From a phage, in sequence record PV730300.1: DNA of 64,000 nt; one strand, written 5' to 3'. Position numbers and translations under genes: made by a program. Below are positions 2,637-63,712 of this stretch, one piece after another (position 1 is the stretch's first letter; each line of letters opens with the position of its first letter). The notes under the pieces were generated by a model. That model was given only the letters and a program-made list of their open reading frames with translations. It did not search any database and had not been told where the DNA came from.

Positions 2637-3196
2637 ACACCCTCACTACGCAACTGTTGAAAAGATTTAGCCATTGCATCTTTTGTTGATAAGATAGGTT
2701 TAAAACCTTCGTCAAAAATCATATCGAAGCCCCAATCGATCCCTATGTCAGGATCATCCCAACGTAAACTTTGTTCGCTAGAAGGGTCGTATGGAGTTGT
2801 GCATTTGTATTCAAAGATAGCGTCCATACTCAAAACTATAAAACCATGTGCCAAACCAGGGGGAAGCCAAAACTGCGTATGGTGTCGTGCACTAAGAACA
2901 ACACCGTCCCAAGCACCGTAAGTTGGACTATCTTTACGTAAATCTACAGCGAAATCCAATACTTCTCCACTTACACAACGAACAAGCTTACCTTGCGGGT
3001 TATTTGTTTGAAAGTGCATTCCTCGCAAAACACCGAAGTTTGATTTAGACATATTATCTTGAACGAAAGTTTGTTTACCAATGATATCTTCGTATTTTTG
3101 TTCATTGTATGTTTCTAAAAAGAAACCACGATCATCTTTATAAACGTCTGGTTTGATAATTACCGCACCTTCAATTTTTGTTTTTTCTACTTTCAT
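2630..3196 (-). CDS. rmlC: dTDP-4-dehydrorhamnose 3,5-epimerase-like cupin (RmlC family)
   Basis: 188 aa; IEGAVIIKPDVYKDDRGFFLE N-terminus and HGF / cupin pattern typical of RmlC. Confidence 0.6.
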   Translation of the reverse strand: MKVEKTKIEGAVIIKPDVYKDDRGFFLETYNEQKYEDIIGKQTFVQDNMSKSNFGVLRGMHFQTNNPQGKLVRCVSGEVLDFAVDLRKDSPTYGAWDGVVLSARHHTQFWLPPGLAHGFIVLSMDAIFEYKCTTPYDPSSEQSLRWDDPDIGIDWGFDMIFDEGFKPILSTKDAMAKSFQQLRSEGVC

Positions 3197-3205
3197 TTTC
3201 TCTCC

Positions 3206-3532
3206 TTACCAGACATGTTGAGAAATAATAGTTTCCGTTTTAATGTTATATTTTTCAAGTAGCTCTGCATAGGCTTCTTTTGCATTCTCATTTACTTTCT
3301 CAAGATCTACAGCTACGCTTCCTTCTCCGCCTTCTAAATAAATACCATATATGCAATAAGACTCATCAGCATCGTAGAAAGGAGAGATGCGACTTAAGTC
3401 AAGACCTTCTTGTAAGAACCAGTTAAAATCTCCGTCAAATTCTTCTTCAATTCTAGGGTCTTCTCCTACAGCCTCTTCCCATTTATTAAAAGGTGCACCC
3501 TGTAACATACGCCATTCGATATCAATACCCAT
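3206..3532 (-). CDS. acidic hypothetical protein
   Basis: ORF with Asp/Glu-rich translation. Confidence 0.4.
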   Translation of the reverse strand: MGIDIEWRMLQGAPFNKWEEAVGEDPRIEEEFDGDFNWFLQEGLDLSRISPFYDADESYCIYGIYLEGGEGSVAVDLEKVNENAKEAYAELLEKYNIKTETIISQHVW

Positions 3533-3707
3533 TTTTCATCTCCTCCTCTTCTTGAGCAGCTTTAATAATTGCTTCATAAATATCGTAAGCAATGCCTCCA
3601 CAACATCTAGCTTCGAAAGCTATTGCTTCTGCAATGTGATCTGTTAATTCTCGTGGAATACGGACATACTCTTTTTCATTCTCCATCTTCCACCTCTTCT
3701 TTTTCAA
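3522..3707 (-). CDS. hypothetical protein (true start probably the internal ATG MENEKEY)
   Basis: ORF; internal ATG overlaps the stop of the upstream zinc-ribbon ORF. Confidence 0.3.
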   Translation of the reverse strand: MKKKRWKMENEKEYVRIPRELTDHIAEAIAFEARCCGGIAYDIYEAIIKAAQEEEEMKNGY

Positions 3708-3822
3708 AGACTACTACTCGTCCCTCACCATGACAATTCAGGCAAGGAAATGTTACCATAATTTCCACTTCCATCTGTCCAGTCCCACCGCACACAGGAC
3801 AAAAAATAAGTTTTTCAGCCAT
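3676..3822 (-). CDS. small zinc-ribbon protein (48 aa)
   Basis: Unlisted ORF MAEKLIFCPVCGGTGQMEVEIMVTFPCLNCHGEG... with two CxxC pairs; AAGGAGG 5 nt upstream. Confidence 0.35.
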   Translation of the reverse strand: MAEKLIFCPVCGGTGQMEVEIMVTFPCLNCHGEGRVVVFEKEEVEDGE

Positions 3823-4031
3823 TATTCCTCCTTAATTATTTCAAACTTGGCAACACCGTTTACAATAATATGACCACAAGACATAACTCCTAGCCAAGGA
3901 TCGCCGTTTTTCTTCGGGCGTTTACCGAATACATCACAAAAACCATTCTTCATTTCGGAGGCTTCATAAGAAGCCCCTTTGTCAAAAACGTCTTTGAATG
4001 TGTCGATTATACCAACACATCTCAAAATCAT
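3822..4031 (-). CDS. hypothetical protein
   Basis: ORF in tight gene array. Confidence 0.35.
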   Translation of the reverse strand: MILRCVGIIDTFKDVFDKGASYEASEMKNGFCDVFGKRPKKNGDPWLGVMSCGHIIVNGVAKFEIIKEE

Positions 4032-5116
4032 TAGAAGTCAAGCTCCTCATCATCAGAGAGATCTTTGTTAGCTGAATTCAATTTGTAATTAGTTAACTGA
4101 ATCTCTTGGGCTGCTGACTGAATCAAATCAGGATTCAACCATTTTTCCATCCAAGCTAAAGGACTATGTTTAGGTGCTTTAAACTTAGCTTTCATTTTCA
4201 ATCGACGATAAATAGGAGCAGCATTGAAATAAACCCACTGTTTAGACAATTCGGCGTTAAGACCTACAATAAAACGACCTTCACTAAACAGGTAGTCACA
4301 CCACTGTTCCTCTTGTTCAACAACAGTGTCGAGGATCAAAGTCAACTCTTCAATATTGTCTTCGTAAATTTTACGCCAAATTGGGTCATGCATCAATGCA
4401 TCAATTACAGCATAATCCATCTTAACATGCAAGATTTCATCTAACATAATTTTCTGGATCAGTTTACAAGCCCCAACAAACAGTTGTTGTTCTGCCATAG
4501 CAAAAGTAGCAGAGAAGGAAGATATAAACTGAATACCTTCTAATCCAATCAGGGCTACCATCCCTTTAAGAATCAGCAGTCGAAGTTCATCGTTAGCTTC
4601 AATCAATCCTAGAGCATACTTATGACCAGCTTCTTCCAACTGACCCATGATATCAGCAATGATACCCATACGATTGAAAATTTTATCATTAATCATAATC
4701 TGATTGATGACTTCGATTGGATCTGGAGTACATTGACGGATTATTTCAGAATACGTTAACGCATGGAGAACTTCCATTTCACTCTGCTTCATCATCATAG
4801 CACAGGCTTCATTGTTACTCAAGAATGGAGAGAACAAAGTGATGATTGATTTTGCAAGAGAATCATTTTCCCATTGGAACGATAAGTTTTTAATCATAAC
4901 ATCATAGTTGTTTTTAGAACAAGCTACGAAATCTTTACGTGTCTGATCCAGATTGACTTCATTCTCATCCCAATCTTGTGCTTTTTGAAGTTTGTAGAGT
5001 TTGTGCATTTCTGGATAAGTTACGTTAACAGAATCAAAGATCCCTAATTGTTCCCCTAAAAATACTGGATATTTTCCTGTTTTGTAAACTTCATTGTGTA
5101 AATTAATTGCTGCCAT
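4031..5116 (-). CDS. nrdB: ribonucleotide reductase class I small (beta) subunit
   Basis: Ferritin-like NrdB pattern (LEGIQFISSFSATFA, DEILHVKMDY); adjacent to nrdA. Confidence 0.8.
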   Translation of the reverse strand: MAAINLHNEVYKTGKYPVFLGEQLGIFDSVNVTYPEMHKLYKLQKAQDWDENEVNLDQTRKDFVACSKNNYDVMIKNLSFQWENDSLAKSIITLFSPFLSNNEACAMMMKQSEMEVLHALTYSEIIRQCTPDPIEVINQIMINDKIFNRMGIIADIMGQLEEAGHKYALGLIEANDELRLLILKGMVALIGLEGIQFISSFSATFAMAEQQLFVGACKLIQKIMLDEILHVKMDYAVIDALMHDPIWRKIYEDNIEELTLILDTVVEQEEQWCDYLFSEGRFIVGLNAELSKQWVYFNAAPIYRRLKMKAKFKAPKHSPLAWMEKWLNPDLIQSAAQEIQLTNYKLNSANKDLSDDEELDF

Positions 5117-5133
5117 TTAAAATTCTCCTCAAT

Positions 5134-5155
5134 AAAAGGGGGCCGAAGCCCCTTT
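5134..5155 (-). terminator. hairpin/attenuator between nrdA and nrdB (minus strand, UUCG tetraloop)
   Basis: Minus-strand RNA reads GGGGC-UUCG-GCCCC followed by CUUUUAUU. Confidence 0.5.
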
Positions 5156-5184
5156 ACGTTTACCCTTCTTCACCTGTTCTCCTA

Positions 5185-7428
5185 CTACATTTTACAGGCA
5201 CTACACCCTTCGTCTTCAGAATCTTCTTGTGCTAAAGAGTCTGCTGATTTTGTTCTACTATTAAGGTAATACAATGACTTGCCACCCAGTCTGGCAAAAT
5301 TCAGAATAAACTGCATCTCAGCTTTCACTGATAAACGTCCACCTACCAATTTAGAATAATCTAGCCAAGAATCACAAGAAATTCCTTGGTCCGTGAACTT
5401 GGTAAAGATACCATACATTTCTGCAAGATCTTTAGCCGGAGTATCCCAGGCGGATTGGTAGAACATTTTCAGTTTTTCGTAGTCTGGAACAATAAATAAT
5501 ACACTACCTTTCTGACTTTGTTTATACATAATAGTATCACGAACAGGATACAGAGAGTTAGTAGTATTGCTTACCAAACTGCTGGACTCATTAGGTGCAA
5601 TAGCAGCCAAGACACTGTTACGGATACCACCTTGTTCAATGATTTCAGCACGTAAGCCTTCCCAGTCCATTTTAAGATCAAAATTACCGATACTATCTAC
5701 TGTTTTAGCATAAGTGTCAATTGGTAGCCAACCTTGAGGCCATTTGGTTTTATCGATCCATTCCGCATTACCTTTTTCCTTAGCCAGACGCAGAGAGGCT
5801 TTTGCCAACCAAAAGTAATGACGTTCTGCAAGTTCATGCATTAATTTTTTAGCATAAGCATCTGAATAATTTACAAAATTGCTTGCCAAGTAATGCGCTA
5901 AGTTTGTAATACCTACACCAATAGATCTACGTGCTTTAGCAGTTATTTCGTTATGTTTAAATGGATAATCCATTGTTTCAATAACGTTGTCAATTGTCAA
6001 TACAGTGTAGTATGCAACATCCTCATATTCTTCAGGTAATACACGACCAGCAACAATAGAAGATAAGAAGCATAAAGCCAATTCTTGATCTTCTGTATTC
6101 TCACCAGTAAAGAGATCCGGCATACTGTGGAAAGCTTTAGTTGGTAAGAAGATCTCTTGACACAGGTTTGATTGATATACCGTATCCAGGAAAGGTGTAT
6201 GGTTGTTAACGTTGTCAGCAAAGAACATGTAAATACGTCCTGTTTCTGCACGTTGAACAATAATCTCTGTCAGAAGATCACGAGCCTTAACAAATTTTTT
6301 CTTAATGCGACGACGGCTTACTTTGTCATAAACTGCATCAAACTCTTCTTCACTTTTATACAAAGCTTCATAAAGTTCAGGAGCATCATCACAACTAACT
6401 AACATCCAGTCTTCGTTTTTTGCTGCTCGACGCAAGAACGAACGGTTAACAACAATAGAATAATCTAGTTTATCCACTCGTTTATCTATAGGTGTTGTTG
6501 GATTCTTCAGTCGAATCAGATCGTCGAAGTCTGGTTCAAGTATGGTAAAGGTAACTGTAGCACTACCTCCACGGCTTGCTTGCTTTGAAGCTCCAACACT
6601 ATCTTCCATCCATTTCAGATACGGAAGAAGACCACCGTGAATAATACGATTATTCTTAACACCTTGACCTGTGGCACGAGTTTGAAGATTAACACCAATA
6701 CCTGCGTTATTCAACGTATACTCATGAGCTAAGTAATTAGCAATGGCTAAAGACTCTGCTGTATCGTCTGCACGGAATAAACAACAAGACGCACTTCCTT
6801 TGATCGGAGTTCGTAGAGTTGTCAGATACGGCGATGGCAGATTAATCTTAAGATCGCTAACATAAGTATAAAGTTTTTTAATATCTTCTATACGGCGTTC
6901 TTTTGGTTGGATCTCCATAACCTTCATTGCGACACCAATGAAAAGAAACTGTGGAGACTCATGCACCACATCGTTTACTGCATCTCGAATAAGATATTTA
7001 TCCACCATTTGACGTAAAACAGAATAACCATAAGTTAGATTTTTATTATGCTTTACAATCTTACCGATTTCTTTGATCTCTTCATCAGTATAATCCATTT
7101 TAGCCCAATGACCACGTTCTACCATATCATGATAAAAGGTATTCAGTGAAGGGATACTGTGGTATCCCCCATGAGCCTGTTTGTAAATCATACCCAGAAG
7201 AAGTCTTCCTGCCATATCACTGTAAGCTTGTGTTTTCTTGTCAATACACGCTGCAATCATTGCTTTATGCAGATCACGTGTAGACACACCGTCATAACAC
7301 CGCTTCACAGCTTCTAATTCAATTTCAGACCAGTTTAGTTTACCTGCTGCAAATTCAGACCACTTGCGAAGTTTTTCTGGGTTAAACTCCTCTGTCTTAC
7401 CATTAGATTTAGTTACAAAACGAATCAA
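5185..7428 (-). CDS. nrdA: ribonucleotide reductase class I large (alpha) subunit
   Basis: 747 aa, NrdA-like, C-terminal Cys pair (CSACKM). Confidence 0.85.
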   Translation of the reverse strand: MIRFVTKSNGKTEEFNPEKLRKWSEFAAGKLNWSEIELEAVKRCYDGVSTRDLHKAMIAACIDKKTQAYSDMAGRLLLGMIYKQAHGGYHSIPSLNTFYHDMVERGHWAKMDYTDEEIKEIGKIVKHNKNLTYGYSVLRQMVDKYLIRDAVNDVVHESPQFLFIGVAMKVMEIQPKERRIEDIKKLYTYVSDLKINLPSPYLTTLRTPIKGSASCCLFRADDTAESLAIANYLAHEYTLNNAGIGVNLQTRATGQGVKNNRIIHGGLLPYLKWMEDSVGASKQASRGGSATVTFTILEPDFDDLIRLKNPTTPIDKRVDKLDYSIVVNRSFLRRAAKNEDWMLVSCDDAPELYEALYKSEEEFDAVYDKVSRRRIKKKFVKARDLLTEIIVQRAETGRIYMFFADNVNNHTPFLDTVYQSNLCQEIFLPTKAFHSMPDLFTGENTEDQELALCFLSSIVAGRVLPEEYEDVAYYTVLTIDNVIETMDYPFKHNEITAKARRSIGVGITNLAHYLASNFVNYSDAYAKKLMHELAERHYFWLAKASLRLAKEKGNAEWIDKTKWPQGWLPIDTYAKTVDSIGNFDLKMDWEGLRAEIIEQGGIRNSVLAAIAPNESSSLVSNTTNSLYPVRDTIMYKQSQKGSVLFIVPDYEKLKMFYQSAWDTPAKDLAEMYGIFTKFTDQGISCDSWLDYSKLVGGRLSVKAEMQFILNFARLGGKSLYYLNSRTKSADSLAQEDSEDEGCSACKM

Positions 7429-50209: not shown

Positions 50210-52363
50210 ATGAAACAAGCTATATTTACTGTCACGCGAGACAAGAGAGTAAATGCGAGTTCATTTAACTACACGACTGTTGACGGAACAGCAGTCGCTG
50301 GTAGAGATTATATTGCAAAATCGGGAACACTTGTGTTCCCTGATGATGCTGATTCTGCTACTATTGTGGTTGAAGTATTTGAACGACCAAAGAACTCAAT
50401 AGATCTTAACTTCTCCCTCCAAGTTTCAGGGATTAGTCAAAATAACATGATGGTTGAAACAACCATCAATTGTATTATAACTACTATCCAAGAAAATACT
50501 ACTCCAATAACTTGGACTACAAAAGACGTTAAAATGTTCTCTCCTATGTATTGGACAATAGATTCTCAAGCAACGGAAAGTTGTTCTATTGTATCTCATG
50601 GAGACTCTTTTACTGCAAGATTTGTAAACAGAACAACAGCAGGTTTGGCAGGGGTTATCTGGAGCACAGTTGACAAATATGACCATAAAGGTGTTGGGTA
50701 TTTACCCCACACAGATTTAAGTTCAGAGAAACTTTGGTTTAAAATGGAAATTAGTCAAAACATGCCAGGTTTTAAAGAAGAACCTTTGGTGCCGACTTTG
50801 ACTGTAACCCTCCTGGATAAAAGTGTTCATTATGTCAGTTTAGGATTCTATGCTTCAGATATTTCAGAAGATGGTAAAACAGCCACAATCAAGCTAGATT
50901 TTGGTAATATCTTTTCTGGCCCTAATAATGATATTCCTTTGGATATGAGTGCCGTAGACAATATTTTCTTCTCTTTGATTACAGCAAGGTATGAAAAAAT
51001 AGAGGAGATTGTACCTATTGACAGTCAAGAGGCTTGGTTTACTTTCACTCTTCTTGAACCTACTTCTGGTTATAGTATGATGAAAGTCAGCAACCTTGTC
51101 CAGCCTGAACATGATATTCGCATGTGCACATCTTATGATGATATGTATAACCTGACTCCAGAGAGAGTTATTTATAATACATATGCACTAGGTTATCGTG
51201 GAATGATTAACCATTACAACGGAATGTCTCACTATTATGAGTTCTCATGGAACGGAACATCTTGGGCTTTAAATAGATCTGTTTTCCTGAATCCGGCTAC
51301 AGAAGCTTGGCTTAACAGTTTCCATTCTATAGCTAATGAAAATGGCTACACAATAATGAACTCTTTGAGTTTTGAGTTGATGAGCACAGTTTGTCCTGTT
51401 GAATGGGTCCAGCATGATTGGAACGATGCTCTTGCAGCAACAGGGTATAAGCCTCCTAGTTACGTGTTGTCTCCAACTATTGACGAAGGCATGGAATATT
51501 TGCAAAATGTTATTAACAAAATAGCATCTATTTCTCAAGCTAATAACATTCCAGTCGTCATTCAAATTGGTGAACCTTGGTGGTGGTATAATACAGCAAG
51601 TAAAATGCCTTGCATATACGATTACACTACCAAACTGGCATTCAACACAGAAACTGGCTTATTTGCACAAGATGCAGGAACAATAGATAATTATAAAACA
51701 GGAACGCCGTTTGACGAATACTATGCGTTTTTGTCTCGTAAACTAGGATTAAGAGTTACAAAGTTTGCAACAGACACTAGAGCAACTTATCCAGGAGCTA
51801 AAGTAACATTGCTGCCATTCTTACCATCAATTATCGGCAATGGTTTAATGGAGAAAGTTAACTTTCCGTCTGATTACTACATTCCTGAAGCTTTTGATTT
51901 TTATTGTTCAGAGTGTTACGACTGGCTTCTGGAAGGTAAAATGATGAAAGCATTTGATGCAATTACCATACCACATGAAAAATTAGGTTTTGAATATTCT
52001 GATATTCACTATCTTGCAGGTTTTGTTCCAGATGCTACTCTTGCCCCTTTGTATGGCTTTGATCCTGAATCAAACTACCGCACGTATCTTTGGAAAATGA
52101 TTATAGGTAACATAGTGTTGAACGCCAATAAGTTTGACGGACTTACACAATATATATGGGCCTATCCTCAAATAATGCACGATTCTATCACGGTAGTTAA
52201 TTCTCAATCCCAAGTTTTCTATATGGGTAACGTGCCTTTGAACGCTTATTTACAGGATATCACTCTTAAGCAGGTAAATGTTGAGATTGCCACCCTAAGT
52301 GGAATTACATTAGCCACTAAATCTGGAGAAGATTTAGTAACAACACAAAAATTTTATATATAG
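50210..52363 (+). CDS. large tail fibre / baseplate protein (putative)
   Basis: 717 aa in the tail module. Confidence 0.4.
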   Translation: MKQAIFTVTRDKRVNASSFNYTTVDGTAVAGRDYIAKSGTLVFPDDADSATIVVEVFERPKNSIDLNFSLQVSGISQNNMMVETTINCIITTIQENTTPITWTTKDVKMFSPMYWTIDSQATESCSIVSHGDSFTARFVNRTTAGLAGVIWSTVDKYDHKGVGYLPHTDLSSEKLWFKMEISQNMPGFKEEPLVPTLTVTLLDKSVHYVSLGFYASDISEDGKTATIKLDFGNIFSGPNNDIPLDMSAVDNIFFSLITARYEKIEEIVPIDSQEAWFTFTLLEPTSGYSMMKVSNLVQPEHDIRMCTSYDDMYNLTPERVIYNTYALGYRGMINHYNGMSHYYEFSWNGTSWALNRSVFLNPATEAWLNSFHSIANENGYTIMNSLSFELMSTVCPVEWVQHDWNDALAATGYKPPSYVLSPTIDEGMEYLQNVINKIASISQANNIPVVIQIGEPWWWYNTASKMPCIYDYTTKLAFNTETGLFAQDAGTIDNYKTGTPFDEYYAFLSRKLGLRVTKFATDTRATYPGAKVTLLPFLPSIIGNGLMEKVNFPSDYYIPEAFDFYCSECYDWLLEGKMMKAFDAITIPHEKLGFEYSDIHYLAGFVPDATLAPLYGFDPESNYRTYLWKMIIGNIVLNANKFDGLTQYIWAYPQIMHDSITVVNSQSQVFYMGNVPLNAYLQDITLKQVNVEIATLSGITLATKSGEDLVTTQKFYI

Positions 52364-52371
52364 GAGTAAAA

Positions 52372-54012
52372 ATGTCAACTACAATTACTAATTTACCTGA
52401 AACATCAAAAGTTAATGGTTCTGATTACCTGGTTTTAGACCAACCTGATAAGACTGTTAAAAGCACAGTTTCCAACTTTCTTACTGACACTGGGGTGGTT
52501 TTAGCCACCCAGTTGAAAGATACAGATGGAGCAGGTTTAGTTAACACATCTAGCGGAGATTCAGTCCAAACCGTTATTGATTATCTGATAGATACTGACC
52601 TGGCTCATCTTAGTAATCTGGCTACTGCCAAAGCGTCTACCATTAAAGCCAACAACATTAATATTGCTTATAAATATGGTAATGTTTCTTATCTCTCTAC
52701 CGGCACTACTGGTACGCCTTCAACTGGTAACGCACATACTTTTTATGATGCAACTGGTAAGGGGTTTAAGATAAATGCACCGCAACGGCAGAAAAACACT
52801 TCTGGTGTAATAGCATTCTCGGAAGTATGGACTAAGTTAGATTTAGACCCTACTCTATTCGAAAAAGCAATATCGCTAGGAATTGGTACATTCATGTTCT
52901 ATACCTGGACAGCGCCAGTACAGACATATAAAGATTTCCTCGACCTTGCGAGTATTTACGGATTTGATGTTATTTTACAGGCAGTACCAAATAGTACGTA
53001 TTCATCCGACCTGGACGCGGATTTCGCTAAACTGTCTCCTTTATTCGACCATGACGCTGTAGTAGGGTTATACCTATTCGACGAGCCGAACTTGTCTACA
53101 TACCCTCTTACCCGCCAGGGTGAGATTATTGCTAAAGCGAAAACACTTAGTAACCTACCGCTGTACGCCGCTAGTAATGCAGAAGTTAACGGGGAATCTC
53201 TACCACTCCATATGGATATTGATTACGTATTTACATCCCAGTACGCGCATTTCATAGGTGCAGTTGGTATCCGTCGATACGCTGCCTCTATGTGGTCGGC
53301 TATGGAGGAGGAGGGGATGAGGGCAGGACGTATCATCCCGTTACTAACAGCGTATTGGTATGAGAACGAGGCCCCAACTTTAAAATCCGCACAGATTACA
53401 GCGGTTAATAACTTCATCTGTAAAAACTTTTCTAAGATTGGCATGTGGGCTTTCTATGCTAATAAAAATGGGCACTTTCTGGAAAACGATGACCAGATAT
53501 ATAATCTCGTGAAACAAAGTCTTGCCATCCGCAAGAGTAAAATAAAAGACTGTAAGTTGATACGTACACTATTCCGAAAGGCTAACGCCCTGCCCGCTAA
53601 CTGCTATAAATACCAGACAAAACCAACTGTCGTAGGGGATGTGTTCTGGCTAGATCCTGCATCAACCGCTACATGGAACGACCCCGCAGGAGTTATTCGA
53701 ATTAAGACAGGGGAGCAATTCGCCATAAACTTTGGGCGACCAGTACGTCTGGAGGCGATTATAGCAGCTTTCACCGACAACAACGGTTCAAGTAACAGCG
53801 CCACCCTGTCCCTCACTTTCAACCCAACTATCGCATCTGGTAGGGTGTATGATACTACTGTCACAAAAGTAGGCGGCGGCGATTTTGAGTGGTTTTTTAC
53901 GGATTTATCGAACCCACCACATTTAGTTACTACAGTGGCTATAAAGGTTGTATCGTCTACTGGCTCTGACTATCTGATATTGGAGCGTATTGGTTTTGTA
54001 GTAACTGAGTAA
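52372..54012 (+). CDS. tail protein with possible glycosidase-like domain
   Basis: 546 aa; central region suggestive of a TIM-barrel glycosidase; terminator follows. Confidence 0.4.
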   Translation: MSTTITNLPETSKVNGSDYLVLDQPDKTVKSTVSNFLTDTGVVLATQLKDTDGAGLVNTSSGDSVQTVIDYLIDTDLAHLSNLATAKASTIKANNINIAYKYGNVSYLSTGTTGTPSTGNAHTFYDATGKGFKINAPQRQKNTSGVIAFSEVWTKLDLDPTLFEKAISLGIGTFMFYTWTAPVQTYKDFLDLASIYGFDVILQAVPNSTYSSDLDADFAKLSPLFDHDAVVGLYLFDEPNLSTYPLTRQGEIIAKAKTLSNLPLYAASNAEVNGESLPLHMDIDYVFTSQYAHFIGAVGIRRYAASMWSAMEEEGMRAGRIIPLLTAYWYENEAPTLKSAQITAVNNFICKNFSKIGMWAFYANKNGHFLENDDQIYNLVKQSLAIRKSKIKDCKLIRTLFRKANALPANCYKYQTKPTVVGDVFWLDPASTATWNDPAGVIRIKTGEQFAINFGRPVRLEAIIAAFTDNNGSSNSATLSLTFNPTIASGRVYDTTVTKVGGGDFEWFFTDLSNPPHLVTTVAIKVVSSTGSDYLILERIGFVVTE

Positions 54013-54021
54013 TAATACATT

Positions 54022-54046
54022 CCCCTCTTAGGAGGGGTCTTTTTCT
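54022..54046 (+). terminator. intrinsic terminator
   Basis: CCCCTC-TTAG-GAGGGG hairpin followed by TCTTTTT. Confidence 0.7.
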
Positions 54047-54067
54047 TAGAAAAACAAAGAGGTACTT

Positions 54068-54220
54068 ATGAACGAATTATTCTCCCAAGGCGGTATTGCC
54101 CCAGGTATTACTGCCATTGGTCTTAGTGCTGCCGGAGTATTAGTTCACTCTGCTGGTAATGTGGACCTTGGGGAATTAGCTGCATATCGTGATTTAAAAA
54201 GTAATGAGAACGCACTATGA
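54068..54220 (+). CDS. small membrane protein (50 aa)
   Basis: Unlisted ORF with AAAGAGG ribosome-binding site and hydrophobic core GIAPGITAIGLSAAGVLV; stop overlaps the next start (ATGA). Confidence 0.3.
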   Translation: MNELFSQGGIAPGITAIGLSAAGVLVHSAGNVDLGELAAYRDLKSNENAL

Positions 54221-54459
54221 GAAAATTTTTAATAGGTATGTTCTGTACATATCCTGATAATAAAGTCAGTTCTACGAAAGTCTGGAACGCTGTAGGCATG
54301 TCGGTTATGACAGGCATGTTTATCTTTTTAGGAATAGAAAAAGAAATTCCTGAATGGATGGGTTGGGCTTTTGTTTTCATGATAACTCCTTCTCGCCTCA
54401 TGAAAAATCTTATTGATTTACGCTGGGGCAGATCACAATCTACCAAAGAGGATGACTAA
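54217..54459 (+). CDS. small membrane protein (80 aa, two predicted transmembrane segments)
   Basis: Translationally coupled to neighbours on both sides. Confidence 0.35.
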   Translation: MRKFLIGMFCTYPDNKVSSTKVWNAVGMSVMTGMFIFLGIEKEIPEWMGWAFVFMITPSRLMKNLIDLRWGRSQSTKEDD

Positions 54460-55946
54460 TGGACGAATATGGTTTGACAGATGCGGGATTTGTAATCCCG
54501 ACTTTTGACGATGTTTTAAACAACTACATGACAGCAGTAAAAAACACATTTGGTGCAGATGCAGCCACTTCGGAAGATACTGTGATCGGACAACTGTTTA
54601 GAATAATTGCATACACAGATTACACATTGTGGGAAGGTATGCAAGGTGTTTATAATACTCAAACACTGGATGGTGCAGAAGGTATTTATCTTGATGAAAT
54701 CTTTTCTAAACGCGGTTTCTATCGAGCAGGTGCAGCAGCAAGTACAGGTTATGCATATGTTAAGAGTAATAACAAAGCAGCTTGGACTTATGAGCTAGGC
54801 ACGGATATTTACTTCAACTCTGATAGTGATATGAACTACTATGTTAGCACACCAACCATGTTGAATGCTAAGATTGCAGCTTATCAAATCTCTCGTGCTA
54901 ATGCAACTGCTACAGGTGTTCCAAATATTACTTTTTATGCACAAAGTGCGGTCGATGGAGGACTAAACAGCAAAACACTTGCACCTGGTTCTTCTACATT
55001 TATAACCGATCTTGAAACTTTTATCAAGGCAAATTTAACAGAAGCTGATCGTAGTCTTGTATTTTCTGATTCAGGTAACTTATCAATTGGTTTTACTTCT
55101 TTAACCAGTGATACTCCAGTGGGGCTGGTAACTCCTATTAAATTTTATGCTAGTGTTCCGGTTGGAACCAAGTGGAGTGAGATTCCGGTAGTTGCAGCAG
55201 AGAAAGGATACAATCCTGTTGGTGTGGAGTCTATTACAGGGATATCTTCTACCTTTACAGGTTATCTTGACAGTGGTAACTTCTATTCATTTTCTCCTGG
55301 TCGAGATGTTGAGACAGACGCAGAATTCCGCTCTCGTTTCAATGACAACGTTGATGAAGCTAACGCAGGGACACGAGCAGCTATTGTGAAAGCTCTGTTG
55401 CTTACAGATGGTGTTACTAAGGTGAAGATTTATGATAACCCTACGTTACATGATCAAGAACACGCTCCAGCTATGACTTTCCAGACTATAGTTTATGGTG
55501 GCAGTGCAGAAGAAATTGCAAATGTTATCTATAAAACCAAACCAATCAACACTTTGACACACGGAACAACTAACATAACAGTTACAACAGAAGATGGAGG
55601 ACAAGAAATTATTCGCTTCTCCCCTGGTGCTTCTGCTACGTATTCTGTAAAACTTGTTTATCAAACTGTCAACGGAACAACTTTAAGTGGAACAGAAAAA
55701 CAAAACATCGTAGAAGCTTTACAAAACCTGCAAGCTTACTTTGAGTTAGGTTCTTCAGTAACGAACGATCAAATCAAAGGTGTTATTTATGCAGCACTTG
55801 CTTTTGGACGCTTGACTTCTCTTCGTGTTTATGTTAAACTTAATACTGAGGATGACAGTAAATATACAGAGAATAATATAGTTCCTGCTTATAATGTTGT
55901 CCCTTCTTTTGACCTTGATAACATTTCTTACGAGTATGGAGTGTAA
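54459..55946 (+). CDS. tail fibre / structural protein (putative)
   Basis: 495 aa in the tail module. Confidence 0.4.
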   Translation: MDEYGLTDAGFVIPTFDDVLNNYMTAVKNTFGADAATSEDTVIGQLFRIIAYTDYTLWEGMQGVYNTQTLDGAEGIYLDEIFSKRGFYRAGAAASTGYAYVKSNNKAAWTYELGTDIYFNSDSDMNYYVSTPTMLNAKIAAYQISRANATATGVPNITFYAQSAVDGGLNSKTLAPGSSTFITDLETFIKANLTEADRSLVFSDSGNLSIGFTSLTSDTPVGLVTPIKFYASVPVGTKWSEIPVVAAEKGYNPVGVESITGISSTFTGYLDSGNFYSFSPGRDVETDAEFRSRFNDNVDEANAGTRAAIVKALLLTDGVTKVKIYDNPTLHDQEHAPAMTFQTIVYGGSAEEIANVIYKTKPINTLTHGTTNITVTTEDGGQEIIRFSPGASATYSVKLVYQTVNGTTLSGTEKQNIVEALQNLQAYFELGSSVTNDQIKGVIYAALAFGRLTSLRVYVKLNTEDDSKYTENNIVPAYNVVPSFDLDNISYEYGV

Positions 55947-58543: not shown

Positions 58544-61500
58544 ATGGCAACATTCCCAACATATCCAGCAACGTCTCTCGAACAGGGCGTAGACCTGGTT
58601 ATTTTCTCATCTAACCAACTCCATGATGTTATTAATGGAAGTGCTACAGAGAGTATTGAAACAGAATCAGGGTTGATACCAACCCTGAGAAAAGCCCTTG
58701 TTGACAACTTTTTCTTTAAAAGCCCATTGGATTGGGCGCAAGGCACAAACGAAACAGTTTTTAACCAACTTCGTTATTTCCAGAATGGAGTATTGAGCGG
58801 TTATTACTATGCCCCTAACGCTACATTGGTTAACCCAATCCCTATGCAAGGGACTCCAGTAGGAGATAACAACTGGGTATTGTGGGGACTGAAAACAGAA
58901 CAACTAGCAACAGAAGTCACCCCGTGGGTATACTCTGGTGCAACGGGTTATGAAACAGTAATTAGTCCTCCTTACATCTTTGATAGTGCTATTGTTACGA
59001 TCAATGGTGTTATTCAGGTTCTGGGGGAAGCTTTCCGTATAGAAGATAGTAAGATCATCTTATCTGAACCTTTGGGACACGATCCTGCAACAGGACTGCC
59101 AAACAAGCTTTTTGCTTATATTGGTAAAATCGTAGCTTCAGCAGATACAGATCCTAACCTAGAGAATCGTCTTGTTAGTTTAGAAACAAAAACGGAAGAA
59201 CTAACAGAAAGCATGGATAAAGTCCCTCTGCAAACTATTGCTCGTAAATATGGTTTGTTAGATGATGAGGTGGCTTACGCAACAGCAGGTCAATCGTTAA
59301 CAGGGATTAAAGCTCTGTATGATCCAGTAGCACAGTCTTCCTACACATTACCTCCTAACATCACAGGAACTTTAACATCCTTATCTGTTTCTGGAGTAAT
59401 GACTTATTCTGGTGGGTCTGTAGATCTTTCTGCACTAGCTGTTGAACGTGGACAGTTTGTTCATTTGCCTACAAGCTTTGGTAATAACGTAACTCTGACA
59501 GCTAAAAATCAGACGATTGGACGTGGTGCTGGTCGTTATCGTTGGGCTGGAAGTTTACCAAAAAGTATTTTGGCCTCCGATACATTGGAGACAAGCGGTG
59601 GATTAGGTCCAAATGCATGGGTTCTGACCAATACAGAAGGACTGTTAACCCCTCGTGGTGGAACATACAACGACTTATTCGATGTTGTCTACTTGTCAGA
59701 ATTTGCTAACAACACAACAGCATATACCACACCAGAAGCAGCTTTCCAAGCAGCACTGTTAGCAGCAAAAGCTTCTAAAAGCAAGATTCTCGATGCTTAC
59801 GGTTGTGATATGACTTTCACGACAAGCTCTTTTGATATTCAAGGTATCACTTTGCGTGGGGGTGTGTTCCGTGGTCAACGCGACTATCGTGTGCAAAATG
59901 CTACAGTAGAAGGCACAACTTTCCGTAACTCTCGTGTTATGTATTGGGGTGGTGCTGTGCGCATGTTCGATTGTTTGTGGGACGGTGCTCCTCGCGCAGG
60001 TCAAGTTGGTAGCTTGGTATTCCAAGGCAACCCAATATCAGGTACTTTTGAAATTGATAACTGTACTTTTAAAAACGGGTTGTATGGCATCCTTCAACAA
60101 GGAACAGGGGAACCAGTAACACGTGGTGTCTTCCGTAACCTTACCTTCATGGACATGCAAGGTGATGCAATAGAACTGAACGTCATCAATAAACATTATG
60201 ACGATGGTTGTGTGATTGAGAATATTTACCTGTCTAATATCGATGGGACTAACGCTCCTATTCCTCTGTCCAACTGGGGTATCGGTATCGGTGTAGCTGG
60301 TAAAGGACCATATGGTTACGGAATCCCTGATGATCAATATTGCAAGAATATTACAATTCGTAACGTTTTTGCAAAACGTTGTCGTCAGATTGTCCACGTA
60401 GAAGTTGGTCGTAATATCTCTATCGAAAACATTCATGGCGATCCAGACCAGACCGTATCTGTTGGGACAGGTTTGGCAACTGGCGCAGTTGTAATGTATG
60501 GAAGTAAAGATTTTACGATTGACGGTGTTTACGGAGAGCCTAAAACAGACGGTAGCACACTTGCAAGTAATATCCGTATGATTTATTTGGAGTGGGGAAC
60601 TAACGCAGTTCTGGATGAAGAGGGTAATCCGGTAGTTCCGGCACAGGGCAGACCTTCAAATCCATGCTTTAACTATTCTGTTCGTAACATTCACACCAAA
60701 ACTGGGCGTGTTTTTGCGGGAGTTTCCGCTGGACCAGGTTATGAAAACAGAGTTAGCTTTGAAAATATTCGTTGCGCTGCATTGCAGTTGTTCGGTATAG
60801 CTTCTTGGCTTTCAATGTCTAACATCACCTGTAATATCTTCGATTGTGTTGGTCAACCTGAATCTGGTCCAGGGACATTTTATGATGGATTCTTCCGTAG
60901 AGAAAAATCTGTTCTTGAAATGGTTAACGTAAACTGTTACCCAGATGGCAAGACGATGGTTACTGGTCGTCCACAGTGGAGCCGTTGCCGTTACTCTGAT
61001 ATTCATCGTGTCAACTGTAATGTTGAAGCTAATATGTATACCAATATCGCAGGTGGTATTGGAGCTATTGTAGGGACAACGGGCAAAGTTTATTACTTAG
61101 AGCCTAATCCTAGTCGAAACATTGATGGAATGCATTTCCCAACAGGGAAAGAGTTTGACAAAGGTGATATGATAGTCAAGGCGGATAATACGTTCTTCCT
61201 TGTAACAACAAGTGGGGCATATATTCCAGATATCCCAGCTTTCGGTATTCGAGCTACACAGGCAGGAGATACCTTCCTAACACAGAACTTGACTCCTAAC
61301 GGGACAGCAACAAATGCTTCTTGGTTGTATCATTACCCTCTGTCAGCAGGGACACGTATCCGTATTCCTGGTGCTGGCGTAGGTGGAGCAGATTTGGACA
61401 CAGTTATTACTCGTGCACCTTATCAAGATAATGATACGTGGACTAACCCAGTTAAAATAGACATTGCAGATCCAATTGTAACGCCTACAAGTGCTGGAGT

Positions 61501-61597
61501 TAGAATTAAAACCATACCTAATGATTCCAGCAATGTTTCTGTAGGTAATACTGCGGTTATTCGCCCAACGCCAGTAGTAGATGTGCCAACAACCTAA
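58544..61597 (+). CDS. tailspike-like protein with probable beta-helix (possible depolymerase)
   Basis: 1017 aa; Gly/Asn/Thr/Val-rich repeats suggestive of a right-handed beta-helix; terminator-like hairpin follows. Confidence 0.45.
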   Translation: MATFPTYPATSLEQGVDLVIFSSNQLHDVINGSATESIETESGLIPTLRKALVDNFFFKSPLDWAQGTNETVFNQLRYFQNGVLSGYYYAPNATLVNPIPMQGTPVGDNNWVLWGLKTEQLATEVTPWVYSGATGYETVISPPYIFDSAIVTINGVIQVLGEAFRIEDSKIILSEPLGHDPATGLPNKLFAYIGKIVASADTDPNLENRLVSLETKTEELTESMDKVPLQTIARKYGLLDDEVAYATAGQSLTGIKALYDPVAQSSYTLPPNITGTLTSLSVSGVMTYSGGSVDLSALAVERGQFVHLPTSFGNNVTLTAKNQTIGRGAGRYRWAGSLPKSILASDTLETSGGLGPNAWVLTNTEGLLTPRGGTYNDLFDVVYLSEFANNTTAYTTPEAAFQAALLAAKASKSKILDAYGCDMTFTTSSFDIQGITLRGGVFRGQRDYRVQNATVEGTTFRNSRVMYWGGAVRMFDCLWDGAPRAGQVGSLVFQGNPISGTFEIDNCTFKNGLYGILQQGTGEPVTRGVFRNLTFMDMQGDAIELNVINKHYDDGCVIENIYLSNIDGTNAPIPLSNWGIGIGVAGKGPYGYGIPDDQYCKNITIRNVFAKRCRQIVHVEVGRNISIENIHGDPDQTVSVGTGLATGAVVMYGSKDFTIDGVYGEPKTDGSTLASNIRMIYLEWGTNAVLDEEGNPVVPAQGRPSNPCFNYSVRNIHTKTGRVFAGVSAGPGYENRVSFENIRCAALQLFGIASWLSMSNITCNIFDCVGQPESGPGTFYDGFFRREKSVLEMVNVNCYPDGKTMVTGRPQWSRCRYSDIHRVNCNVEANMYTNIAGGIGAIVGTTGKVYYLEPNPSRNIDGMHFPTGKEFDKGDMIVKADNTFFLVTTSGAYIPDIPAFGIRATQAGDTFLTQNLTPNGTATNASWLYHYPLSAGTRIRIPGAGVGGADLDTVITRAPYQDNDTWTNPVKIDIADPIVTPTSAGVRIKTIPNDSSNVSVGNTAVIRPTPVVDVPTT

Positions 61598-61603
61598 TGG
61601 AAC

Positions 61604-61626
61604 AGAGGGGGATTCCCCCTCTTCTT
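61604..61626 (+). terminator. terminator-like hairpin
   Basis: AGAGGGGG-ATT-CCCCCTCT followed by TCTTCC. Confidence 0.45.
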
Positions 61627-61658
61627 CCAATAGAATGGTCTAATGATAGGAGAGATAA

Positions 61659-63683
61659 ATGAATTTAACAAGACCTAATAGTGCGATAGCCGATCTGGTA
61701 GAAGCTACTTATCGAAAACGTCGCAGCTTTGAGGCAGGTTTTACATTACGTAATTCCCGTGAAGTTTTGCTGTTAGCAGCAGAAGGGAATTATTACCAAT
61801 GGAAAGGAACTTTTCCTAAAGTAGTTCCAGCAAACTCTACGCCAGCCACCACAGGTGGTATTTCTTCCCTTGCATGGCAAAGTGTTGGGACCGCTGATGA
61901 TATAGCAATTATCAATGCCAAGTTTACGGCAATGCAGCAACAGATTGATGATCTGTCGGAAACAATACCTGAAGCTGGTAAATCGGCTTATCAGATCGCA
62001 CTTGATAATGGTTTTGTTGGAACAGAAGCACAATGGCTTGCTTCTTTGAAAGGGGATACTGGTGCTCAACTTAATATTAAAGGATCATTAGCAAGCACTA
62101 GTGAGCTACCATCTACAGGTAACGTTGCAGGGGACGGTTATATCGTAGGCGATGTAATCTATGCTTGGGATGGTTCTGTTTGGAAGCTTATTTCTTCTCT
62201 TGGACCAGAAGGGAAATCAGCTTATGAGGTATGGTTGGCAGATGGTAATACAGGATCTGTTTATGATTTTCTTACCTCTATAAAAGGTGATAAAGGTGAT
62301 GTTGGTCCTACAGGGCCACAGGGAGCACCTGGTGTTAACGCCAACGGTTTTGATTATCGTGGAGATTTGCCTTCTACAAGTAACTTACCACAACCTAACT
62401 CTGAAAACGTAAGCCAAGCTTATTCTATCAATGGTAATCTTTATGTCTCTAATGGGACAGCTTGGGTCAACATGGGTAATATTGTTGGTCCTCAAGGTCC
62501 ACAAGGTGAGGCAGGTAAAGACGGTCTTGATGGAACAGATGGAGATGAAGGGAAATCTGCATATCAAAGTTGGCTGGATGCTGGTAATGAAGGGACAGAA
62601 GTAGATTTTATTGCCTCACTTAAAGGTCCAAAAGGAGACAAGGGTGATCAAGGAGAGCGAGGTCCACAAGGTGAACTAGGTCCACAAGGACCAGTGGGTG
62701 CAACAGGATCAGGCTTAGAGATTATCGGGGTTCTGAACAGTGAAGCTGAACTTCCTCCTACTGGAGAAGTAGGTGATGCATATAAAATTAATAATGATTT
62801 GTATGTTTGGATTCAAGATGCTACGGAATGGATGAATGTTGGCAGTCTTGGAGGAACATCAATTACAGCTAAAGGTCATGTTCCGAACAGTGAAGCTCTC
62901 CCTGTTTATAATAACTATGGTGATGCCTATTTAACTGAAGACACTAGTAATCTTTACATCTATACCTACGATCAAGACACCAATTCCGCATCTTTTGTTG
63001 ACATGGGAAGTATTAAAGGCGACAAAGGTGAAAAAGGGGATAAAGGAGATAAGGGTGATCCTGGAACAAACGGAACCAACGGTACTAATGGGACCAACGG
63101 TAAAGACGGCGCACAGTGGTTTGTAGCAACAACTAATCCAGTCGCAGGTGATGGTGTTATCAATGATTACGCTTTCAACACTACCACTGGAGCAGTGTTT
63201 AAGAAAACAGATTCTTCTACGTGGACACTTATAGGAACTCTTCCTAGTATACCAGAAGCACCTCAAGACGGCTTGACGTATGGTCGTTCTGATGGGAACT
63301 GGATCGAAATATCAGGATCAGATCCTACAGAAGCTATAACACCAACTAAAGTTACAGCAGGTTTCATGGAACTTGAAACAACTACTGCCAACTCTGGAGC
63401 ATCTTGGACTCCTTCTGGAACTTCCAATATGTATGTTGTTACAGTAACTGACGCTCTGACAGTTGGAGCATGGCCTGGTGTCACTGGCTCTACAAAGCCT
63501 AAAGCGTTTTCAGCAATGATTTATTTGATTCAAGATACAACGGGACACACGGTTACACTAGATGCGTCTTATGGAGCACTGAATGATACAGAAATAGCAA
63601 CTACTGCTAACGCAGTAACAATTTTGCAATTAACGTATCCTGGTGTGGGTAATGTCGTGGACATGGTTGTTGTAACACGATAA
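61659..63683 (+). CDS. tail fibre protein with collagen-like Gly-X-Y repeats
   Basis: GPKGDKGDQGERGPQGELGPQGPVGATG and GDKGEKGDKGDKGDPGTNGTNGTNGTNGKDG tracts; thrice-repeated GKSAY..WL...GN.GTE..F..SLKGDKGD module. Confidence 0.6.
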   Translation: MNLTRPNSAIADLVEATYRKRRSFEAGFTLRNSREVLLLAAEGNYYQWKGTFPKVVPANSTPATTGGISSLAWQSVGTADDIAIINAKFTAMQQQIDDLSETIPEAGKSAYQIALDNGFVGTEAQWLASLKGDTGAQLNIKGSLASTSELPSTGNVAGDGYIVGDVIYAWDGSVWKLISSLGPEGKSAYEVWLADGNTGSVYDFLTSIKGDKGDVGPTGPQGAPGVNANGFDYRGDLPSTSNLPQPNSENVSQAYSINGNLYVSNGTAWVNMGNIVGPQGPQGEAGKDGLDGTDGDEGKSAYQSWLDAGNEGTEVDFIASLKGPKGDKGDQGERGPQGELGPQGPVGATGSGLEIIGVLNSEAELPPTGEVGDAYKINNDLYVWIQDATEWMNVGSLGGTSITAKGHVPNSEALPVYNNYGDAYLTEDTSNLYIYTYDQDTNSASFVDMGSIKGDKGEKGDKGDKGDPGTNGTNGTNGTNGKDGAQWFVATTNPVAGDGVINDYAFNTTTGAVFKKTDSSTWTLIGTLPSIPEAPQDGLTYGRSDGNWIEISGSDPTEAITPTKVTAGFMELETTTANSGASWTPSGTSNMYVVTVTDALTVGAWPGVTGSTKPKAFSAMIYLIQDTTGHTVTLDASYGALNDTEIATTANAVTILQLTYPGVGNVVDMVVVTR

Positions 63684-63686
63684 CAG

Positions 63687-63712
63687 AAGCCCCGAAAGGG
63701 GCTTTCTTTTTA
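63687..63712 (+). terminator. intrinsic terminator
   Basis: AGCCCC-GAAA-GGGGCT hairpin followed by TTCTTTTT. Confidence 0.7.

Follow-up and report, generated by a model that had tools for sequence, protein, structure and literature searches.

Experiments have shown that collagen-like side-tail proteins of Escherichia coli prophages form trimers, with a true triple helix and a domain for trimerisation at the C-terminus (PMC3368898). Closer to the gene described here stands a Stephanstirmvirinae group of tail-fibre orthologues that comprises phi92 gp151, phAPEC8_00179 and 'TfpM2', the last a 681-amino-acid (aa) protein of the proposed Wecvirus phages (PMC12695924). We analysed a 64,000-nucleotide (nt) stretch of phage DNA (sequence record PV730300.1), referred to below as the window, and studied the tail-fibre coding sequence at 61659..63683 on the plus strand, as are all features located by window coordinates in this text. 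The 674-aa open reading frame (ORF), which begins with ATG, had been proposed in an initial annotation made from the sequence alone, and it was confirmed as an orthologue of phi92 gp151, phAPEC8_00179 and 'TfpM2'. The gene is thus already known and annotated; it is the counterpart of phi92 gp151, well conserved and ordinary of its kind.

The gene shares 97-99% nucleotide identity with about 55 GenBank phage records, nearly all of them Phapecoctavirus (phAPEC8-like myoviruses of about 150 kb), and 98.5% with phAPEC8_00179 of phAPEC8 itself. The records annotate it as tail fibre, as tail spike and in one case as 'collagen triple helix repeat protein', and in the BASEL phages EmilieFrey and PaulScherrer the orthologue is called 'lateral tail fiber protein with type I collagen domain'. 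Against phi92 gp151, protein identity is 59% across 414 aa in the middle of the shaft (aa 101-514), and phrog_15437 'tail fiber protein' matches over the full length (aa 1-674, 1335 bits). Judged by its sequence, the window phage is a Phapecoctavirus (phAPEC8-like myovirus). The tail-fibre identity given by the initial annotation is supported by homology and gene context: it was borne out by the phrog_15437 match, by a Tail_spike_N domain and by a position in a baseplate and fibre gene block after a colanidase gene.

The protein is built of two kinds of repeated module, here called A and B, which alternate with four runs of glycine (Gly)-X-Y triplets. phi92 gp151 likewise has three A and four B modules, four runs, a foldon-like motif, the same tip and the position after the colanidase gene; the two architectures differ in run lengths only, with 6, 6, 9 and 6 triplets in gp151 vs 6, 8, 10 and 11 in the window phage. 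The prophage proteins EPclA and EPclB reportedly have one collagen domain flanked by the regions PfN, PCoil and PfC. These proteins of E. coli O157 prophages, which combine a Gly-X-Y domain, a coiled coil and a C-terminal trimerisation domain, are of tail-fibre type like the window protein (Ghosh et al. 2012, PMC3368898). In the window protein, by contrast, A and B modules separate four short runs, the head is a Tail_spike_N domain and a foldon-like motif is the putative clamp; beyond the Gly-X-Y tracts, no sequence relationship to EPclA/EPclB was found. In BclA of Bacillus anthracis, filament length is set by polymorphism in triplet number. BclA and the streptococcal Scl1 and Scl2 likewise carry a collagen-like stalk without hydroxyproline that is rich in threonine, in proline at the X position and in charged triplets, and the NCBIfam Scl and Lcl models gave sub-threshold matches on the Gly-X-Y parts of the window protein (61 vs 400 bits). 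Unlike these bacterial proteins, the window protein has no LPXTG anchor and no match to a C1q/TNF head, and its stalk is split into four putative rods.

Three further systems resemble single parts of the protein. The T4 fibritin foldon and the engineered collagen-foldon peptides (PDB 1nay) share with it a 23-residue match (IPEAPxDGxxYxRxDGxW) that stands C-terminal to a collagen run. Unlike the T4 foldon, the motif of the window protein is internal and is followed by a tip of about 120 residues, and a 41-residue module lies between it and the collagen run. The tailspikes CBA120 TSP1/3/4, G7C gp63.1 and gp66 have the same Tail_spike_N domain, the remainder of them being a beta-helix enzyme, whereas the window protein is a collagen-and-module fibre in which no enzymatic domain was detected. 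Finally, Pa223 gp52 (PDB 9ny6), a trimeric spike whose beta-structured shaft carries a knob at the C-terminus, was the best structural match of the AlphaFold2 (AF2) model; it differs in having a capsid-binding N-terminus, no collagen runs and no module A, its identity is 14% and its template modelling scores (TM-scores) are low, and the PDB sequence searches gave no Pa223 gp52 hit.

Collagen-like runs and repeated modules

Four uninterrupted Gly-X-Y runs were found: run 1 at 62286..62339 (aa 210-227, 6 triplets), run 2 at 62487..62558 (aa 277-300, 8 triplets), run 3 at 62625..62714 (aa 323-352, 10 triplets) and run 4 at 63018..63116 (aa 454-486, 11 triplets). This agrees with the initial annotation, which had noticed several such runs, including a (GDK/GEK)n tract followed by four GTN triplets. 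In order, the triplets of run 4 are GDK GEK GDK GDK GDP GTN GTN GTN GTN GKD GAQ, with the GTN triplets at nt 63063-63098. Run 4 is a length-polymorphic, imperfect 9-nt tandem repeat, the period of which was reported both by Tandem Repeats Finder and by a direct-repeat search; the direct-repeat families D3 to D10 were short two-copy matches, mostly protein-level repeats or chance. The four perfect GTN triplets distinguish the window phage from the rest of the gp151/TfpM2 group read, and all 14 full-length members read of the 90%-identity cluster have GTN GTN GTD GTN instead.

When the protein was shuffled 10,000 times, the longest run never exceeded 8 triplets and 225 shuffles held any run of at least 5, as against four such runs, with a maximum of 11 triplets, in the real protein. 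The Pfam Collagen model (PF01391) scored 46.5 bits, above its cut-off of 27.2. In an alignment of 25 sequences, the glycine at every third position was mostly invariant in runs 1-3 and always so in run 1 (aa 210-225), while the X and Y residues of run 2 fell to 29% identity in phi92. Insertions and deletions (indels) within the runs were all multiples of 9 nt (9 or 18 nt). Proline is enriched in the X position of the runs, and run 4 bears KGE and KGD pairs. Taken together, a glycine periodicity kept while X and Y diverge, with indels of whole triplets, fits a triple-helix constraint and supports the view that the runs may be under one. The collagen-like character claimed for the protein is thereby borne out at the level of sequence, by the Pfam Collagen score and the conserved glycines.

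A module of about 30 residues in three copies had also been described, with coordinates that proved right to within about 10 nt. The copies of this module A lie at 61968..62057 (aa 104-133, PEAGKSAYQIALDNGFVGTEAQWLASLKGD), 62202..62291 (aa 182-211) and 62544..62633 (aa 296-325), and are pairwise 43-59% identical at the protein level. A profile made from distant proteins, with no orthologues among them, found exactly three copies, with expectation (E) values of 6e-15, 2e-10 and 7e-12; these and the other independent-profile E values are scaled to a database of 1e6 sequences. AF2 predicts module A as two short helices, in copy 1 at aa 110-116 and 123-130.

Module B, of about 45 residues and with the pattern G..x.G.....LP......GDxY.I....Y.W.G..W...G, had been overlooked. 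It is present in four copies with independent-profile E values of 1e-13 to 2e-5. Copy 1 lies at 62067..62201 (aa 137-181, E 8e-13) and is predicted as four beta-strands with an AF2 confidence (predicted local distance difference test, pLDDT) of about 82. Copy 2, found with the profiles, lies at 62346..62486 (aa 230-276); copy 3, at 62712..62852 (aa 352-398), forms with run 3 a cassette that has a second allele; and copy 4, at 62859..63017 (aa 401-453, E 2e-5), has a longer beta-hairpin in the AF2 strands. Further downstream, at 63114..63239 (aa 486-527), follows a divergent B-like beta module, the fifth copy, which had likewise been missed (AF2 pLDDT 83-92). No other module-bearing or collagen-like ORF was found in the window.

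Among the 120 best protein hits, module A occurred in 0-21 copies and module B in 0-11 copies. The module A profile matched 27,923 cluster representatives (50% identity clusters) at E<=0.001 among 1.84 billion, with at most 38 copies in one protein. Tandem arrays of module A alone were also seen, with 38 copies in a protein of 2782 aa and 21 in one of 1153 aa (among P0149, P0028, P0030 and others). Neither of the two modules, nor the tip, had a model in the Pfam copy used, and DUF2934 touched just 5 of 51 module A copies, at E>=0.066. In a profile search of the PDB, no solved structure matched module A by sequence. An ankyrin repeat was considered for module A and rejected: only designed ankyrins (GKTPFDLAxDNGN) matched, at E>=0.001, and this was taken as chance or as a convergent helix-turn-helix likeness. 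Module B gave a weak PDB match to gp184 of 8y6v (E 6e-4). PF26209.2, which appears in precomputed annotations of orthologues, was absent from the present scans and could not be identified. Proteins built of the same modules are also found in Vequintavirinae, namely phiTE_215 (1999-5298 of its locus, L007; 1099 aa), with seven B modules, and a protein of LTH01 (2008-5808 of locus L008; 1266 aa), with eight. Both genes lie two genes downstream of the major head protein gene and outside the tail-fibre locus.

Length and allelic variation among relatives

The comparison of repeat copy number among relatives, which the initial annotation had put forward as a check, was carried out on 19 orthologues of 58-99% identity, taken from GenBank loci and from a protein search; 15 of them were scanned with the module profiles. 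Module number was invariant, with three A and four B modules in 15 of the 15. Three of four later GenBank variants align without indels across the module region, and the fourth, EP57, lacks aa 319-480. The number of triplets was always 6 in run 1, 5-11 in run 2, 8-10 in run 3 and 3-13 in run 4. Among phages at least 97% identical, run 4 had 11, 10 or 9 triplets, in whole 9-nt steps. Most phapecoctaviruses have 11; ASO2A has 10, one 9-nt GTN unit being lost, and iGC_PHA_EC001 has 9, with the loss of 18 nt (two GDK units). In phiWec179 the run reaches 13 triplets, and in the phi92-like cluster it mostly has 6, with 7 in two sampled members that carry an extra GEK. As far as the sequences tell, it is only the last collagen-like stretch that changes length among near-identical relatives in this gene. 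The earlier claim that repeat number varies therefore stands for run 4 (3-13 triplets; 11, 10 or 9 among near-identical phages), but not for the module of about 30 residues, fixed at three copies, or for run 1, fixed at 6 triplets. The accompanying suggestion that such variation is a route to host-range variation gained no backing, as our analysis links the variation to no host-range change.

The repeat in run 4 is imperfect: its units show 75-78% matches and use different synonymous codons, which fits a low rather than a high slippage rate. The effect of each triplet on length would be about 0.86 nm of triple helix. Among the displayed records of at least 96% identity, all span 2025 nt save ASO2A, iGC_PHA_EC001, SKA64 and EP57. 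The last two were set aside as evidence of repeat variation. SKA64 (OM362897.1) has a 76-nt tandem duplication in module A1 (locus positions about 695-770) that breaks the frame, and a truncated coding sequence is annotated there; it is an error or a defective allele. EP57 (vB_EcoM_EP57, OR544956.1) has lost 486 nt in frame (aa 319-480), a stretch that begins at the end of A3 and takes in most of run 4. We distrust this apparent module deletion, because the record has 130.7 kb instead of the usual 150 kb or so and the neighbouring colanidase and downstream genes are shortened as well; the record as a whole looks riddled with deletions.

A second kind of variation was found in the middle of the shaft. 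A second allele of run 3 together with module B3 (aa ~323-400, nt 62625-62852) is carried by anhysbys, nepoznato and WPEC1; it is 52-64% identical to the window phage in protein and 50-68% in DNA and has kept its length. Outside this cassette the three are 96-100% identical to the window protein. The divergent patch starts just after the SLKG end of A3 and stops at the GSLGG end of B3, so that the pattern looks like the exchange of a whole rod-plus-module unit via conserved borders. Further records with 93% query coverage probably carry the same cassette allele. Collagen-like repeats have been described as recombination hot spots in phage anti-receptor genes (PMC7242381, PMC5601072), and the cassette pattern agrees with this.

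Terminal domains, proposed assembly and its rivals

The N-terminal Tail_spike_N domain (61692..61889, aa 12-77), overlooked in the initial annotation, was found with Pfam PF18668 at 70.5 bits against a cut-off of 25 (E 1.3e-19). PDB sequence searches matched it to CBA120 TSP1/3/4, G7C gp63.1 and others at E values of 2e-13 to 2e-5 and 35-40% identity, and Foldseek returned the same structures with a probability of 1.0 (AF2 pLDDT 79-89). It is likely the particle-attachment or docking domain. A single long helix follows in the AF2 secondary structure (61899..61964, aa 81-102), which probably forms a short trimeric coiled coil.

Near the C-terminus, a foldon-like beta-hairpin that had also gone unnoticed, SIPEAPQDGLTYGRSDGNWIEIS, was located at 63246..63317 (aa 530-553), with AF2 strands at aa 540-544 and 547-551. 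Against T4 fibritin foldon chains in the PDB it gave phmmer E values of 1e-4 to 5e-3, with 13 of 23 residues identical. The foldon signature residues Glu, Tyr, Arg and Trp are kept in the predicted hairpin, and A534, R543 and W548 are nearly invariant in the 25-sequence alignment. The relatives P0020 and P0028 exceed the cut-off of Pfam Fibritin_C (37.2 and 30.3 bits vs 21). One orthologue, P0011 (622 aa, from an ENA contig of 156.8 kb), is without the divergent B-like module, and its last collagen run abuts the foldon-like motif (...GQDGVSGIPEAPNDAKLYGRK...), which makes it a natural counterpart of the engineered collagen-foldon fusions.

The C-terminal beta-rich tip (63342..63680, aa 562-674; AF2 pLDDT 82-95), another domain missed before, is presumed to be the receptor-binding end. 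It is homologous to residues 682-790 of the 793-aa tail fibre of phiTE (PDB 9cuy chain g; also 9mjn) at E 7e-11, and this fibre (9cuy_g) has been seen attached to the baseplate wedge (PMC11972413). Tip identity between genera is 54-66% vs about 60% for the whole protein. As the tip is thus no more diverged than the rest, it probably targets a conserved surface structure. When a separate AF2 model of aa 486-674 (pLDDT 77.9) was compared with the BFVD viral structure library, 229 structures matched at E<=0.001; among those listed many are unnamed or uncharacterised, and where a name is given it is mostly that of a tail-fibre or collagen-repeat protein. In the fold search with this model, CBA120 TSP4 N-terminal domains scored 6.4 and the Pa223 spike 5.5, and no TNF- or C1q-like fold was matched, so that a head of the BclA type is unsupported.

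The full AF2 monomer model, computed from the 25-sequence alignment, has a mean pLDDT of 66.8, with every module at 75-88, which favours the view that the modules fold as discrete units. Module A was predicted as two short helices, module B as four beta-strands and aa 540-551 as a beta-hairpin. Confidence fell below 50 in all four Gly-X-Y runs, which is uninformative either way since it is expected from a single chain of a triple helix. The other low-confidence segments were the first 17 residues, the junctions at aa 132-135 and 180-186 and the linker at aa 552-574. Foldseek against the PDB returned the trimeric Pa223 capsid spike as the best match (E 1.3e-5), followed by tailspikes that bear Tail_spike_N.

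On these grounds we consider it probable that the protein forms a segmented homotrimeric lateral tail fibre, in which globular modules are separated by short triple-helical rods and a clamp lies near the C-terminus. Trimerisation, the triple helix, the order of folding, the position on the virion and the receptor are what this model proposes; it builds on the sequence anatomy, homology, conservation and polymorphism observed above. The Tail_spike_N domain of about 80 residues would plug the trimer into a branched adsorption apparatus at the baseplate. The 22-residue helix would form the coiled coil, and behind it would come a shaft of A and B modules alternating with four short rods, then one more beta module, the foldon-like hairpin and a beta-rich tip of about 110 residues, a kind of end that many other phage tail fibres share. 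The rise of the collagen triple helix is 0.286 nm per residue, and the 35 triplets in total would measure about 30 nm if triple-helical. During assembly, the C-terminal tip and the foldon-like clamp would trimerise first and set the three chains in register, and the triple-helical rods would then zip toward the N-terminus. The rods might be held by inter-chain Lys-Gly-Asp/Glu salt bridges and by proline in X, not by hydroxyproline. Folding as a C-to-N zipper, and inter-chain electrostatic pairs and clamps, are established for collagens generally (PMC11923368). The finished tip would bind a host surface structure. Over evolutionary time the last rod may gain or lose whole triplets by slippage or unequal recombination, in length steps of about 0.86 nm, and conserved module borders may serve as recombination joints, as in the alleles of run 3 and B3.

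Several points weigh against this reading. The runs are short (6-11 triplets), which speaks against triple-helix formation, and an AF2 monomer with low confidence in the runs is no test of a triple helix. The foldon assignment draws on weak E values over 23 residues; Pfam Fibritin_C (PF07921) gave no hit on aa 481-674 even at E<=10, and the motif is for this reason called foldon-like and not filed as a family member. The literature searched held no experiment on the window protein or a close orthologue. In the latest (2026) cryo-electron microscopy (cryo-EM) of phi92, an AlphaFold3 model of gp151 fitted no fibre density, and its function was termed uncharacterised (PMC13450770).

The result from phi92 leads to the question of where on the particle the protein might sit. 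It could belong to the capsid or neck and not to the baseplate, as a decoration spike (compare the capsid spike of Pa223) or a whisker (compare T4 fibritin) that makes contact with the cell envelope last longer. The authors of the phi92 study remark on the same likeness and fitted gp151 to no tail-fibre density (PMC13450770); a foldon-like motif is the hallmark of fibritin, the T4 neck whisker; and the large A/B-module proteins of Vequintavirinae are encoded near the major head protein gene. We nevertheless regard a capsid or neck position as unlikely, since Tail_spike_N is known as a domain of tailspikes in branched tail complexes (CBA120, G7C), not of capsid anchors, the gene lies within a block of baseplate, short-fibre and tailspike genes, the fibre seen on the phiTE baseplate wedge ends in a homologue of the tip, and the TM-scores to Pa223 gp52 are low (0.12 and 0.25). 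A further question is whether the runs form rods at all, or are flexible glycine-rich linkers or hinges with no triple helix. Strict glycine periodicity kept in 25 relatives while X and Y diverge, indels of whole triplets only, proline enriched in X, KGD/KGE pairs and a Pfam Collagen score over the cut-off all argue for rods, as do the stable triple helices found in similar proteins of E. coli phages (PMC3368898). Flexible linkers would account for the shortness of the runs (6-11 triplets), the lack of hydroxylation machinery and the AF2 pLDDT below 50 in all four runs; low AF2 confidence is, however, expected for one chain, and we hold this reading to be improbable.

A further reading concerns run 4. 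As a fast-switching contingency repeat, it would alter host range at high frequency. It is indeed the sole part that differs in length among near-identical phages (11, 10 or 9 triplets; 6 or 7 in phi92-like phages), and work on other viruses describes collagen-like repeats as hot spots of recombination and as places where deletions associated with host range occur (PMC7242381, PMC5601072). Its units are imperfect, however, with 75-78% matches and scrambled synonymous codons, so that slippage is disfavoured; the large majority of independent isolates hold exactly 11 triplets; all changes are in frame, which leaves no on/off switch; the effect on length is about 1-2 nm; and there is no known correlation with host range. 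Such a role of run 4 thus seems to us quite unlikely. That the repeats are collapsed or expanded by assembly is scarcely credible. The frame-breaking 76-nt duplication of SKA64 and the 486-nt deletion of EP57 do look like errors or defective alleles, but the length of 2025 nt is common to nearly all of the ~55 records of at least 95% identity and to 14 full-length cluster members, including metagenome-derived ones, and the module copies are just 43-59% identical in protein. As the tandem array is about 100 nt long and imperfect, and so readily spanned by short reads, and as the gene has the same length in nearly all of the ~55 relatives, assembly collapse is of no concern here.

Returning to the segmented homotrimeric fibre, a more far-reaching version of it would be a natural 'collagen plus foldon' fibre, in which the clamp nucleates rods between autonomous modules, run 4 acts as a length spacer, the cassette, exchanged as a unit between genes otherwise 98-100% identical, is a mid-shaft site of specificity or interaction, and module A is a common building block so far undescribed. 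This extension is tentative, and we rate it as possible though doubtful.

Gene neighbourhood and significance

The fibre gene has its own ribosome-binding site and is flanked by a hairpin on either side. Directly 3' of the stop codon of the upstream colanidase gene, a stem-loop can be read from the sequence at 61604..61622 (AGAGGGGG-att-CCCCCTCT); the terminator scan did not pick it up, as it has too few Ts, and in phage ASO2A the annotation puts a rho-independent terminator at the corresponding site. The ribosome-binding site AGGAG, also read from the sequence, lies at 61648..61652, 6 nt 5' of the ATG, and the phi92 record likewise annotates an AGGAG ribosome-binding site ahead of gp151. At 63686..63705, 3 nt past the fibre stop codon, an intrinsic terminator-like hairpin (GAAGCCCC-gaaa-GGGGCTTT, then CTTTTTAT) was found by the terminator scan and in the sequence, and its counterpart in ASO2A is annotated as a terminator. 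No chaperone gene was found directly adjoining the fibre gene, and with the ribosome-binding site and the two hairpins this favours a gene self-contained in expression and assembly. In relatives, the gene 3' of the fibre gene encodes a large protein with Ig-like domains.

The local gene order is that of phi92: baseplate wedge, short fibre, fibre assembly protein, lipoprotein, colanidase tailspike and fibre gene. The fibre gene directly follows the colanidase gene, as gp151 follows gp150 in phi92, and the same order is found in ASO2A and others. The colanidase-type tailspike (58544-61597; 1017 aa, phrog_6117) matches a colanic-acid-degradation family and contains, inside the chain (aa 302-361), a Tail_spike_N domain. 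Over its first ~200 residues it is similar to the N-termini of other fibres, and from its sequence the colanidase may be a hub for the docking of other fibres. Farther upstream, a 717-aa protein encoded at 50210-52363 carries a Calx-beta domain as well as NCTSP_N and TIM-barrel_NCTSP, the latter two being 'non-contractile tail sheath protein' families, despite the contractile tail.

Next comes an ORF of 546 aa (52372-54012, with a gap to 54459) that occupies the variable tailspike slot of the fibre locus with a rare allele; ASO2A has a gene for a 921-aa fibre at this slot. None of 50,697 phage records covers at least 80% of 52300-54500 of the window, and the best, vB_EcoM-ZQ1, shows 90% identity over 59% of the query. 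The protein had no Pfam hit and no PDB sequence hit, and a PHROG tail family matched its first ~70 aa only. It is this ORF, and not the collagen fibre, that looks like the host-range cassette of the locus.

phAPEC8- and phi92-like phages are of therapeutic interest for their broad host range, and the assignment of genes to lateral fibres in them is unsettled (BASEL paper; phi92 cryo-EM, PMC13450770). The kind of protein described here was already known, and our results leave the understanding of it unchanged. What they add is a more detailed domain map, the tracing of natural length variation to run 4, the allelic cassette of run 3 and B3, and the commonness of modules A and B, which have no Pfam model in the copy used and no solved structure. 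With at least 27,900 clusters that contain it, module A would be an undescribed and very common block of fibre shafts. The domain map provides construct boundaries for structural work on a gp151-type fibre, from the docking domain through the coil, modules, rods and clamp to the tip, and it marks where natural variation in length and in the cassette is tolerated. As the gene is highly conserved among phapecoctaviruses, the host structure bound by the tip is probably conserved too.

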